From: Methanothrix sp.
GTDB taxonomy: Archaea > Halobacteriota > Methanosarcinia > Methanotrichales > Methanotrichaceae
NCBI GenBank assembly: GCA_963682135.1
Contig: OY821645.1
Location: 1,888,001 to 1,952,000 of the forward strand
Length of the DNA stretch: 64,000 nucleotides
Reading direction: 5' to 3'
A model generated the notes under the pieces. The model saw only the letters and a list, made by a program, of their open reading frames with translations. It did no database searches and had not been told where the DNA came from. Of the stretch, positions 23,985 to 41,862 are shown one piece after another (position 1 is the stretch's first letter; each line of letters begins with the position of its first letter). The position numbers and the translations under genes are program-made.

Positions 23985-25757
23985 ATGATTCTCCAATTCC
24001 CAAAACATCTCTTCTGCATGACTATGCTGTTATTCCTATTATCATCCTCGTTGCCGGACTCCGGCGCCGGCGCTCCCTCCCCGGATGCTGCGGGCCTCTC
24101 CCTGAGCGGCACCGCTTTCCAGGATGCCAATGGCGACGGCTTCTTCTCGCCGGGCGAGAAGTCTGTCGCGAATGCTACTATCAGCCTAACCCTGGAAGGA
24201 AATGCTGCGTCCACAGCCACCACAAACGAATCGGGGCAGTATTCTTTCGTCAACCTCTCACCCGGCCGCTATGAACTGAAAATGGACCCCTTCTCAGGCT
24301 GGAGCCTGACTGCACCGGGATCCGGTCGCTACGAGGTGACCCTCTCTGACAGGAGCGGCTCTGGCCTGGACTGGGGCTTCTTTGCGCCGCTGGCCAGCGC
24401 CTCCTTCCCCGCCCGGGAATATCCGATTATGCATCTCACACAGGAAGAGGCAAGCCAGCGGGCCGGGCAGTACGATACTTTCGCCAAAGCCTATCTCAGC
24501 CCTGAGATCGCTAGCCGAATGGCCAGCGAGCCTGCCGCCTCCTTCAGTCTGCTCGACCGACTCAAGTACACCCCCTCGGAGCGAGATCAGGGCACTTGCG
24601 GCAGCTGCTGGGCCTGGGCGGGAACGGGTGTGATGGAACTAGATTATGCTCGCCAAAAGGGCGTTTCCGATCGTCTCTCCACGCAGTATATTGTCTCCAA
24701 CTACAACGGCGGATGCGGCAATTCCGGGGCCTGCTGCGGGGGGTGGCTGCCGGATCTGGTCGGCTTTTACCAGGATAAAGGCATAATGGTTCCCTGGTCC
24801 AACAGCAATGCTCATTATCGAGGTGGAGAACAGGGCTGCGGCGCATGCTCGATTGTATCCGCATCCACCATATCAACCGAGCCTCATTATGATCTGTCGG
24901 CCATCTCCGTTAATACCATTCCCACTCAAAAATTGACCAACGAAGAGGCTATCTCCAACATTAAGAATGTCTTGCTGCAGGGCAAAGGCATCTGGTTTGC
25001 CTACTATCTGCCGGATAAGAGTGCCTGGGACAATTTCTTTAGATTCTGGGGCAGCGAGCCGGAGAGCGCCGTTTGGCAGCCGGACAGTGCCTGCGGCAGA
25101 CCATTTGACTATAAGAACGGAGGCGGGCATGCCGTTCTCTGCGTGGGCTACGATGAATCCGATCCCAATAACCGCTACTGGATTATGCTCAATAGCTGGG
25201 GCGATACAACCGGACGACCGGCAGGCCTCTTTCGCATGAATATGGACATGAACTACGATTGCACCTACGGCGATATCGGATATGCCTTCTACTGGATGAC
25301 TCTGGACATGAGCTACCCGCAGGAAGATCTTGAGTGGTCGCAAGCTTTTCCAGACGCCATGGCAAGCCCCAATCAGCAGCCTGTAAAGCCTGACAAGCCT
25401 CAAGGCAGCAGAACCGGTACTCTGCAGAAACCTTACAGCTTTGCCGCCTCAGCGATCGATCCGGATGGCGACGATCTTCAGATTACCTTCGATTGGGGTG
25501 ACGGCAGCACCTCGCAGACCGAGATGGTAAAATCGGGAACACTGGTGCAAATGCCGCATAGCTGGAGCCGGGCAGGAACCTACCAGGTCCGGGTCATGGC
25601 AAAGGACGAAAATGATGCAGAATCACTCTGGTCCGCCGGCAAAGCGGTGAAGATCTATGCAGTGCCCGCTCGCACCAAGGAACGGCCCGCTCCCAGGATA
25701 AAAACAGAAAAAGCAGGACAGGGCAAGGAAACCTGTCCCTGTTCAAAGAAGTCGTGA
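23985..25757 (+). CDS. Secreted papain-family (C1) cysteine protease with SdrD-B-like and PKD domains
   Basis: RDQGTCGSCWAW, GGHAVLCVGY, WIMLNSWG; N-terminal FQDANGDG...GQYSFVNL; C-terminal FDWGDG...HSW. Confidence 0.88.
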   Translation: MILQFPKHLFCMTMLLFLLSSSLPDSGAGAPSPDAAGLSLSGTAFQDANGDGFFSPGEKSVANATISLTLEGNAASTATTNESGQYSFVNLSPGRYELKMDPFSGWSLTAPGSGRYEVTLSDRSGSGLDWGFFAPLASASFPAREYPIMHLTQEEASQRAGQYDTFAKAYLSPEIASRMASEPAASFSLLDRLKYTPSERDQGTCGSCWAWAGTGVMELDYARQKGVSDRLSTQYIVSNYNGGCGNSGACCGGWLPDLVGFYQDKGIMVPWSNSNAHYRGGEQGCGACSIVSASTISTEPHYDLSAISVNTIPTQKLTNEEAISNIKNVLLQGKGIWFAYYLPDKSAWDNFFRFWGSEPESAVWQPDSACGRPFDYKNGGGHAVLCVGYDESDPNNRYWIMLNSWGDTTGRPAGLFRMNMDMNYDCTYGDIGYAFYWMTLDMSYPQEDLEWSQAFPDAMASPNQQPVKPDKPQGSRTGTLQKPYSFAASAIDPDGDDLQITFDWGDGSTSQTEMVKSGTLVQMPHSWSRAGTYQVRVMAKDENDAESLWSAGKAVKIYAVPARTKERPAPRIKTEKAGQGKETCPCSKKS

Positions 25758-25770
25758 GACTGTAAGAAAT

Positions 25771-27015
25771 TTAGGAAGGAGGACAAGCGTTTTTTCCCAG
25801 ATTCGCTACCATCGCCTCAGCCCTTCTTCCCACCTCGGATGGGTCCAGAGGAACACGGGCCACGCCCGTTTCTATGGCGGCGCGAGCTACGGCTGCAGCC
25901 ACGGCGGGGACTACCCTTCGGTCCAATGGCGAGGGAATGATGCATACCTCGGACACGTTCTCAACCAGTCCGGCAATGGCCTGGGAAGCTGCGACCTTCA
26001 TAGCTTCATTGATGTCCGATGCCCGCACATCCAGAGTCCCGCGAAAGATCCCCGGGAAGCCCAGCACATTATTGACCTGATTGGGGAAATCGGATCGACC
26101 GGTGGCCACCACCCGCGCTCCCGCCTGCAAAGCCAGGTCGGGCATGATCTCAGGCACGGGATTGGCCATGGCAAAGACAATTGCGCCAGCTGCCATGCTC
26201 TTTACCATTTCAGGAGTCACAATGCCAGCCACAGACAGGCCCAGGAAGACGTCAGCACCCCTAATTGCATCGGCCAGGCTCCCTGTAACATTGCGGGGAT
26301 TGGTCATGCGGGCGATCTCCTGCTTGGCAGGGTTGAGGTCGGACCTGCCCTGGTGGATCACACCCCGGCTATCACAGAGTATGGCATCCTTTACCCCGAA
26401 GCTGTAGAGAAATTTGGTGACGGCGATGCCGGCAGCGCCAGCTCCGCTCACGGCGACCTTGACCTGTTCAAAGGTCTTGCCAACTACCTTGAGAGCATTG
26501 ATGAGAGCTGCCAGGGCAACCACGGCGGTGCCATGCTGATCATCGTGAAATACCGGTATCGACAGGATCTTCTTGAGACGCCCCTCAACCTCAAAGCAGC
26601 GTGGCGCACTTATGTCCTCCAGGTTGATTCCGCCAAAGACGCCCTCTATTTTGGCAACGGTCTCCACAATCACCGATGGGTCCTTGCTGCTTATCGCTAT
26701 GGGAAAAGCATCTATGCCCGCGAAGTTCTTGAACAGAATGGCTTTTCCTTCCATGACCGGTATGGATGCCAGCGGCCCAATATCACCCAGGCCCAGGACA
26801 GCAGTTCCATCTGTTACCACGGCTACAAGATTGCCCTTAGCGGTGTACTCGTAAACGTCATCTGGATTCTTTTCGATCTCGCGACAGGGTTCGGCCACGC
26901 CCGGAGTATAAGCTAATGAGAGGTCACGCACGGTTGCGCAAGGAACCTTGCTGTGGACGGCAATCTTGCCCTTGGCATCTTTATGAAATGCTAATGCATC
27001 ATCTCTTAGAGACAT
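25771..27015 (-). CDS. NAD(P)-dependent malic enzyme
   Basis: LAYTPGVA, VTDGTAVLGLG, VMEGKA, NLEDI, HDDQHGTA, GAGAAG, FAMANP, GRSDFPNQ; start set at MSLRDD because the longer ORF overlaps the tRNA. Confidence 0.93.
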   Translation of the reverse strand: MSLRDDALAFHKDAKGKIAVHSKVPCATVRDLSLAYTPGVAEPCREIEKNPDDVYEYTAKGNLVAVVTDGTAVLGLGDIGPLASIPVMEGKAILFKNFAGIDAFPIAISSKDPSVIVETVAKIEGVFGGINLEDISAPRCFEVEGRLKKILSIPVFHDDQHGTAVVALAALINALKVVGKTFEQVKVAVSGAGAAGIAVTKFLYSFGVKDAILCDSRGVIHQGRSDLNPAKQEIARMTNPRNVTGSLADAIRGADVFLGLSVAGIVTPEMVKSMAAGAIVFAMANPVPEIMPDLALQAGARVVATGRSDFPNQVNNVLGFPGIFRGTLDVRASDINEAMKVAASQAIAGLVENVSEVCIIPSPLDRRVVPAVAAAVARAAIETGVARVPLDPSEVGRRAEAMVANLGKNACPPS

Positions 27016-27063
27016 AACAACTCCTGTTTTTAGGATCCTGCGGCTAACTAGGGAGGAGCAACA

Positions 27064-27071
27064 GATATAAA
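27064..27071 (+). promoter_or_regulatory. Probable TATA box of the tRNA-Ser gene
   Basis: gatataaa about 30 nt upstream of the tRNA 5' end. Confidence 0.45.
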
Positions 27072-27098
27072 GCATGGGTCCGACGGAGAATTGTAAGG

Positions 27099-27250
27099 GC
27101 CGGGGTGGCAGAGCGGACAATTTCAGCCGGCTTTAGGCCGACTGGAGTTCATACGCGGCAGGCTCGAGACCTGTTGTCCCTTCCTGGGACGCTTGGGTTC
27201 AAAATGATTGAGAGCGCGATAGCTCTCTCAGGAAAATCCCAACCCCGGCG
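27099..27250 (+). tRNA. tRNA-Ser(CGA) with two non-canonical introns (27121-27152 and 27204-27236)
   Basis: Acceptor GCCGGGG/CCCCGGC plus G73; anticodon arm GCAGG-CT-CGA-GA-CCTGT; long variable arm GTCCC/GGGAC; T-arm TTGGG-TTCAAAT-CCCAA after splicing; 87 nt mature. Confidence 0.88.
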
Positions 27251-27301
27251 CTAATTGATTATGGAAAGTTTCATATCATAGCAGAAAAAGGCGATAAAGT
27301 T

Positions 27302-27451
27302 ATGGCTAGATTTCCAGAAGCTGAAAAGAGAATCTTGAATCTCAAGATATGCATGAGCTGCAACGCACGAAATCCTGTAAGAGCAACTCGCTGCCGCAAG
27401 TGCGGCTACAAAGGACTGAGGATGAAGTCCAAGGAAAATAAGACCGCTTAA
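27302..27451 (+). CDS. rpl40e: 50S ribosomal protein L40e (not in ORF track)
   Basis: [42 protein letters not shown]. Confidence 0.95.
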
Positions 27452-41547: not shown

Positions 41548-41862
41548 TGGCGGGCAGTCCGGGTGGTTCGGCGTCACCTGTAACCCGAAATCGTCGATAA
41601 GCGGGGGGCGAAGCTGACGGAAGACTCTGGGCGCTGTGTGCTCAGTCCAGTTGCCGACTATGATTCTCCGTCCTGCAGGGATGGCACCGGTCCATGGGTT
41701 TTCCTGACGGAAGGCCTGTGTACCATAATTGCGGGAACAGGTTCAGGCCCGGAAGGGAGCAGACCCACCGCGGGTAACTATCGCTTACAGGTATATGGGG
41801 AGGAGAAGGCTTCGGGATTAACTGGCATGCAGTCCCGGTGGCAACCGGCGGCGCGCCTGCCA
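41548..41862 (+). ncRNA. ffs: Archaeal signal recognition particle (7S) RNA
   Basis: Terminal helix tggcgggc/gcctgcca; Alu-like 5' domain (ggcgtcacctgtaacccgaaatcg); helix 8 CAGGCCCGGAAGGGAGCAG; about 315 nt. Confidence 0.92.

Follow-up and report, generated by a model that had tools for sequence, protein, structure and literature searches.

A tRNA-Ser(CGA) gene of a Methanothrix-type methanogen lies on the forward strand at positions 27099–27250 of the window, by which we mean the whole 64,000-nt stretch of DNA analysed, and it is made up of three exons and two introns (Table 1). After the exons had been joined by script from the window coordinates, ARAGORN called an 87-nt tRNA-Ser(cga) with a 7-bp acceptor stem, an anticodon arm, a long variable arm and a 5-bp T-stem closed by a 7-nt loop. 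The features are those of a class II tRNA, the variable arm being 17 nt long with a stem of 5–6 bp and the discriminator at 27250 being G73. A long variable arm together with discriminator G73 forms a set of serine identity elements. CCA is not encoded after exon 3, where the next bases are CTA. The original prediction had placed a tRNA-Ser(CGA) here with introns at 21/22 and 59/60; its anticodon and boundaries hold, excision of both introns gives the 87-nt cloverleaf in ARAGORN, and every helix, bulge and intron it named is present in the sequence. Taken together, the evidence below shows a genuine and conserved gene that almost certainly functions.

Table 1. Positions of the tRNA-Ser(CGA) gene parts and of associated features, in window coordinates except for EndA
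Feature	Position	Strand	Content
Putative promoter block, conserved	27056–27078	+	TATA-like box ATATAAA at 27065–27071; ~30 nt upstream of the mature 5′ end
Exon 1	27099–27120	+	acceptor 5′ strand, D-stem 5′ strand, D-loop to position 21
Intron 1	27121–27152	+	D-loop 21/22, 32 nt
Exon 2	27153–27203	+	D-stem 3′ strand, anticodon arm, long variable arm, T-stem 5′ strand, T-loop to position 59
Anticodon CGA	27165–27167	+	within exon 2
Intron 2	27204–27236	+	T-loop 59/60, 33 nt
Exon 3	27237–27250	+	last T-loop base, T-stem 3′ strand, acceptor 3′ strand, discriminator G
rpl40e	27302–27451	+	ribosomal protein L40e, Pfam PF01020; 51 nt downstream of the tRNA
EndA gene	L001:1267–2319 = G000:C1:2597331–2598383

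In the D-stem of the spliced tRNA, G10-C25 and C11-G24 are paired, but A12·C23 is mismatched. This mismatch, at window positions 27110 and 27154, is invariant in the 78 two-intron relatives described below and is also found in an intron-less relative (L148); other families with a D-loop intron have U at position 23, or U12-A23. A mechanical open frame of 49 codons starting with GTG runs over the tRNA gene (27105–27254, +) and is not for annotation.

The 23-nt block upstream of the gene is identical in 20/20 same-genus loci while its flanks vary, and its position and sequence suggest that it functions as the promoter. The upstream neighbour is a divergent malic-enzyme gene, and downstream of rpl40e a PcrB-family gene and then an M24 peptidase gene follow on the same strand. 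There is no T-run between the tRNA and rpl40e, so the two may be co-transcribed. A DNA search of 40 relatives found the tRNA–rpl40e stretch whole in 19 of the 24 same-genus genomes, the region being ~78–94% identical to that of other same-genus genomes; of the remaining five, two have parts of it at contig ends and three, which are 58, 70 and 93% complete, were unmatched. The spacer between the two genes (27251–27301) is ~17 nt shorter in one species group of the genus (L008, L011–L013, L016, L018), and one of the RNA contigs considered below, from run X6, has this short form. Elsewhere in the window, 23985–25757 (+) encodes a 590-aa protein with papain-family protease, PKD and SdrD B-like domains, probably a secreted or surface protease.

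Detection of the gene and its single copy

The unspliced window yielded no genes in ARAGORN, and thus no tRNA at this stretch. Rfam at gathering score likewise found no tRNA in the window, only SRP RNA; for 26900–27450 there were no matches at E up to 10, and the tRNA model RF00005, run over the whole 3.04-Mb genome, gave 46 loci, none of them at this gene. The sole Rfam family in the window is a full-length archaeal SRP RNA at 41548–41862 (+), which scores 193.5 bits against a gathering score of 96.5. The expectation that standard scans may miss the gene was therefore borne out for ARAGORN and Rfam here and, by a published comparison, for tRNAscan-SE 1.3, but it fails for tRNAscan-SE 2.0, which finds like genes in three Methanosaeta genomes. 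The supplement of the latter program (PMC8450103) lists Ser-CGA genes in Methanosaeta concilii GP6 (151 nt, 69.0 bits), M. harundinacea 6Ac (150 nt, 81.3 bits) and M. thermophila PT (153 nt, 81.8 bits). These genes resemble ours in anticodon, family and near-identical length (150–153 versus 152 nt here), and they are marked there as 'novel', meaning that version 1.3 missed them. They differ in belonging to other species of the genus, and the supplementary listing consists of coordinates and scores, without intron positions, motif quality or distribution. The gene family is thus already known at the database level, as tRNAscan-SE 2.0 output, and the caveat on novelty attached to the original prediction applies. 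Our literature search, outside which the older key papers fell, found no dedicated account of the Methanosaeta/Methanothrix introns or of the conflict between them and the type of enzyme. What interest remains is mechanistic, namely how an α′2 splicing endonuclease handles a relaxed D-loop intron.

The same behaviour is seen in relatives. Spliced by the same rule, all 78 two-intron and all 23 one-intron sequences are called tRNA-Ser(cga) by ARAGORN, against 0/101 when left unspliced; with intron 1 alone removed, 0/78 of the two-intron relatives are called, and with intron 2 alone removed, 11/78. ARAGORN was rejected as a ruler for the splice sites, because its tRNA call survives a shift of as much as 4 nt in the 3′ end of intron 1, or of 2 nt in that of intron 2. 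The cut sites therefore rest on the bulge-helix-bulge (BHB) rule and on intron-less relatives: in L148, a genome of another family whose tRNA-Ser(CGA) is intron-less, the D-loop runs colinear with the expected exon 1–exon 2 join, and sister-family genes have a T-loop without an insert that is identical to the predicted exon 2–exon 3 join.

The gene appears to be the only one of its kind in the genome. ARAGORN, run with or without introns, reported no gene with a (cga) anticodon, and BLAST of the spliced sequence against the genome returned the three exon pieces and no second copy. Two short matches were considered as second copies and rejected, a 15-nt BLAST match at 1673064–1673078 and an exact 12-mer at 435769, both of which fall within protein-coding sequence. 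Another, intron-less tRNA-Ser(CGA), named in advance, together with the lack of a spliced product, as what would speak against the two-intron gene, was thus looked for by ARAGORN, Rfam and BLAST, and none was found.

CGA is the sole expected serine anticodon that has no other gene. ARAGORN places Ser GCT and GGA elsewhere, and a tRNA-Ser(TGA) gene with a canonical 37/38 intron of ~33 nt lies outside the window at G000:C1:682188–682305 (−). ARAGORN mislabels this last gene as tRNA-Ala(tgc), setting its intron one base off, and a regular expression for the UGA anticodon stem-loop gave nothing useful. Without the gene described here, which ARAGORN and Rfam both miss, the genome seems to lack a UCG-specific tRNA, and annotation pipelines should therefore use a BHB-aware finder. 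By wobble, tRNA-Ser(UGA) might also read UCG, so the Ser(CGA) gene need not be essential.

Splicing motifs of the two introns

Intron 2 is a near-strict bulge-helix-bulge. Its outer helix is the T-stem (27193–27197 with 27238–27242), and its central helix is formed by TTCA 27198–27201 and GGAA 27231–27234, with four pairs of which the last is an A·G mismatch. The bulges, AAA 27202–27204 and AAT 27235–27237, are 3 nt each, and the inner hairpin consists of TGA/TCA (27205–27207 with 27228–27230, 3 bp) followed by GAGAGC/GCTCTC (27210–27215 with 27222–27227, 6 bp). The layout is that of the strict hBHBh′ definition apart from the A·G pair, which is A·G in 64 and A-U in 14 of the 78 relatives. The intron falls at 59/60 when the cut follows the second bulge base; judged from sequence alone, the cut could slide along the A run without altering the product.

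In intron 1, the central helix is formed by GGAC 27115–27118 and GTTC 27147–27150 (4 bp, one of them G·U), the 5′ bulge AAT 27119–27121 is a clean 3 nt, and the inner stem pairs TTCAG 27122–27126 with CTGGA 27142–27146 and continues with 27128–27131 and 27137–27140. The 3′ stretch ATA 27151–27153 has no adjoining outer helix, and in a fold compatible with the cloverleaf it lies opposite unpaired D-loop bases. This missing outer helix, a point absent from the original prediction, is the reason why intron 1 is a relaxed, HBh′-like BHB motif: the central helix, the 5′ bulge and the inner helix are present, and the strict hBHBh′ definition does not apply.

Could the D-loop intron nevertheless be nearly canonical? 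The sole alternative outer helix is a GCG/CGC pairing of 2–3 bp, in which CGC 27154–27156 of the D-stem 3′ strand pairs with GCG 27113–27115 of the D-loop in place of the D-stem 5′ strand, or a shorter helix uses GC 27113–27114, and the 3′ bulge becomes 4 nt. The pairing has an ensemble probability of 0.98 and is chosen by RNAalifold; a fold combining the 2-bp outer helix with the central helix has about the same energy as the cloverleaf-compatible one (−60.3 versus −61.1 kcal/mol), and the cloverleaf D-stem, for its part, offers just two Watson-Crick pairs and the A·C. The price of this helix is a 4-nt bulge in place of a 3-nt one, or a central helix shortened from 4 to 3 bp. None of its three pairs changes in any of the 78 sequences, so they cannot be tested by covariation, and in an intron-bearing gene of another family (L144) the alternative pairing is weaker (G-C, U·G, G·A) whereas the normal D-stem is perfect. 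We consider it rather unlikely, though by no means negligible, that the D-loop intron is in truth nearly canonical in this way, and we treat it as relaxed in what follows.

The 152-nt precursor folds with a z-score of −4.47, and 0/200 shuffles fold as well. The minimum-energy fold given by ViennaRNA (−70.9 kcal/mol) contains neither central helix, the BHB fold having −61.1 kcal/mol and the GGAC/GTTC helix a pair probability of 0.004. This minimum-energy fold was rejected as a guide to the motif: the pairs it prefers break in 28 and 35 of the 78 relatives, whereas the intron 1 BHB central helix is kept in 78/78, so that comparison across relatives favours the splicing motif rather than the predicted fold of lowest energy.

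These relatives form alignment A1, the 78 distinct two-intron sequences left after removal of duplicates. Exon 1 has a single variable position among them, and the exon helices are invariant. Of the alignment cells, 96.0% pair, against 92.6% in shuffles and 37–52% when the partners are slid; changes on both sides are found in 14 pairs, against 7.3 expected, and 0/500 shuffles reach any of the five measures. The intron 1 central helix is paired in all 312 cells (4 pairs × 78 sequences), with changes from G·U to G-C, and compensatory changes occur in 4/5 pairs of the intron 1 inner helix and in 9/9 pairs of the intron 2 inner helix. The inner helices of both introns are thus kept by compensatory substitution while their sequence drifts and the exons stay near-constant.

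Distribution and age of the introns

A scan of public genomes with the D-loop-intron pattern gave 109 loci, which belong to Methanothrix, Methanosaeta, Methanocrinis and Methanotrichaceae and also to Methanococcoides, Methanohalophilus, Methanohalobium and Methanosalsum. When 139 loci were tested with one regular expression, 125 matched in full, and the other 14 were mostly partial or had been drawn in by the rpl40e part; a T-loop insert is present in 98 of the 125 full loci and lacking in 27.

The two introns differ in their spread over families. The T-loop-intron pattern occurs in 87 of 104 genomes of the window's family (its own genome excluded), the misses being mostly incomplete assemblies, and in 0/196 genomes of seven other families of the class (0/3, 0/134, 0/32, 0/12, 0/2, 0/1 and 0/12). 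The D-loop-intron pattern, counted in genomes at least 90% complete, occurs in 60/64 of the window's family and, in other families, in 1/1 (f2), 41/76 (f3), 2/3 (f5) and 0/6 (f4), where a miss of the pattern does not equal absence of the intron, as one missed genus carries the D-loop intron with a diverged exon (L149). In one f4 genome the gene is free of introns (L148), a lineage within f2 carries an intron at the canonical 37/38 site in its place (L142, L143), and in two Methanosarcinaceae genera (g6, g25) the pattern was unmatched, the intron being either absent or diverged in sequence. The D-loop intron is common to the window's family and at least three other families.

On the distribution of the two patterns, the D-loop intron is therefore probably the older one and would have arisen before several families diverged, and the ancestor of the window's family would have acquired the T-loop intron; this order is read from presence across families and not from a rooted tree. 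The phylogenetic pattern thus dates the gain of one intron, with the D-loop intron having been lost, or having become too diverged for the pattern, in some lineages.

The tRNA-Ser(CGA) genes of Methanosarcinaceae (Methanohalophilus, Methanococcoides, Methanohalobium and Methanosalsum) share with ours the exons and the position, central helix and bulges of the D-loop intron. They differ in having one intron, the T-loop-intron pattern occurring in 0/134 genomes of that family, and in not adjoining rpl40e. In the tRNAscan-SE 2.0 supplement (PMC8450103), four such one-intron genes are found by that version, having been mistyped as Val or Undet by version 1.3.

Splicing enzyme, RNA contigs and proposed pathway

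The genome encodes one splicing endonuclease, an EndA of 350 aa with two PF01974 and two PF02778 matches forming tandem repeats, and this domain arrangement marks it as an enzyme of predicted α′2 type. Its best relative of solved structure is A. fulgidus EndA (E 4e-40), with which it aligns end to end, and around the catalytic His of the C-terminal repeat one pairwise alignment with that protein shows no gap and no specificity-loop insert of the sort that accompanies broad specificity. The N-terminal repeat matches the catalytic-domain model with 94 bits, as high as the 92 bits of the C-terminal repeat; it is 11 residues longer than its A. fulgidus counterpart, and at the position expected for the catalytic His it has Ala. 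An RtcB ligase is also encoded in the genome. In reviews and an experimental paper, α4 and α′2 enzymes are reported to cut strict motifs, relaxed ones needing an (αβ)2 or ε2 enzyme with a specificity loop. The background given with the original prediction, that multi-intron tRNAs are typical of Thermoproteales and that homomeric endonucleases prefer strict motifs, agrees with the literature to the extent that we consulted it.

Four metatranscriptome runs (X1, X2, X4 and X6) were aligned to 26950–27450 as contigs and not as reads, and such contigs give neither levels nor ends. In X1, three contigs go from 27203 straight into exon 3 and the trailer CTA, and another, of 86 nt, still contains intron 2. 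In X6, a single contig of 280 nt covers 27107–27203, including intron 1, with a few differences from the window; it then has exon 3 and CTATTTA in place of 27204–27274 and continues to 27437 inside rpl40e. Its several mismatches to the window assign it to a relative, and we take it to be a read-through transcript that has lost intron 2 and still contains intron 1. X2 (two contigs) and X4 (one contig) show no joint at the tRNA, missing cover in contigs not being evidence, and the exon 1–exon 2 joint was seen in none of the four runs, which says little given that these are contigs. One further X1 contig has 28 unrelated letters before 27151, the first 8 of which equal 27151–27158, and does not match exon 1; it may be another organism's tRNA or an assembly artefact.

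The exon 2–exon 3 joint is thus present in contigs of 2/4 runs, all from relatives whose own DNA is not in hand. A genome without intron 2 would give the same contigs, and the joints could in principle be the DNA or RNA of uncultured relatives lacking the T-loop intron. DNA carry-over is possible in metatranscriptome contigs, the X6 contig is from another organism whose genome is not in hand, and some sister-family genes have an identical T-arm without an intron. However, a trailer specific to the family (CTA..., CTATTTA) comes after the joints, the X6 contig carries the family-type intron 1 and the linkage of tRNA and L40e, and 0/98 family-type loci lack intron 2, the pattern being found in 87/104 genomes of the family with misses that are mostly incomplete assemblies. 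An origin of the joints other than splicing is accordingly improbable to us. Read as splicing, the RNA contigs give a first hint that the strict T-loop intron is removed first.

A gene that is decaying or silent, whose inserts are never removed while UCG is read by tRNA-Ser(UGA), would be a different account of the whole locus. Such a tRNA-Ser(UGA) does exist, the exon 1–exon 2 joint was seen in none of the four runs, the D-stem has the A12·C23 mismatch, and α′2 enzymes are held not to handle relaxed motifs (PMC5829648). Set against this, the exons are near-invariant in 78 distinct species-level sequences, and the changes in the introns are compensatory and keep the splicing motif. The promoter is invariant in 20/20 loci, the A·C mismatch is also present in an intron-less relative, and the gene is covered by RNA contigs, some of them with intron 2 taken out. 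We regard a pseudogene as highly improbable.

We propose instead, with high confidence, that this is a functional, single-copy tRNA-Ser(CGA) whose two introns are cut out by the α′2 EndA and whose exons are joined by RtcB. Transcription from its own conserved TATA promoter would give a precursor of ~152 nt plus flanks, sometimes extending into rpl40e. The single EndA would cut both introns at the second bulge base and RtcB would join the exons, after which trimming of the ends and addition of CCA would yield the 87-nt class II tRNA reading UCG. The T-loop intron would be a near-canonical substrate, in which a 4-bp helix with a 3-nt bulge at either end lies between the T-stem and the inner hairpin. 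The D-loop intron would offer a canonical 5′ bulge and a 3′ cut site within an internal loop, and its removal, for which we suggest a place after that of the T-loop intron, is probably the slower step.

A more far-reaching interpretation, which we put forward only tentatively and would not yet bet on, is that an ordinary-looking, homodimeric α′2 enzyme lacking a specificity loop, contrary to the strict-only rule, routinely excises a relaxed D-loop intron that occurs in at least four families of the class, and that the T-loop intron was gained later and is spliced first, even on the rpl40e read-through (one contig). Whatever the outcome, an α′2 enzyme facing a D-loop intron without an outer helix is a natural test case for the rule that links endonuclease architecture to intron motif. 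The D-loop intron is kept, with compensatory changes, across several families, and the strict intron in the same molecule serves as an internal control.

Two further known systems come close. The pre-tRNA-Glu(UUC) of Methanopyrus kandleri, as described in Kaneta et al. 2018 (PMC5829648), is likewise euryarchaeal and combines a relaxed HBh′ D-loop intron with a second intron, and its strict intron is removed first in vitro. It differs in that the M. kandleri enzyme is (αβ)2 and the second intron is a canonical 37/38 one, whereas here the enzyme is α′2 and both introns are at non-canonical positions. The multi-intron tRNAs of Thermoproteales likewise have several BHB introns at positions other than 37/38 in one gene. 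In the accounts consulted, however, such introns affect many tRNAs of a genome, and the heterotetrameric enzyme carries a specificity loop. In the present genome, Ser(CGA) is the only tRNA gene that was missed by ARAGORN and Rfam and has non-canonically placed introns, and the EndA shows no loop insert.
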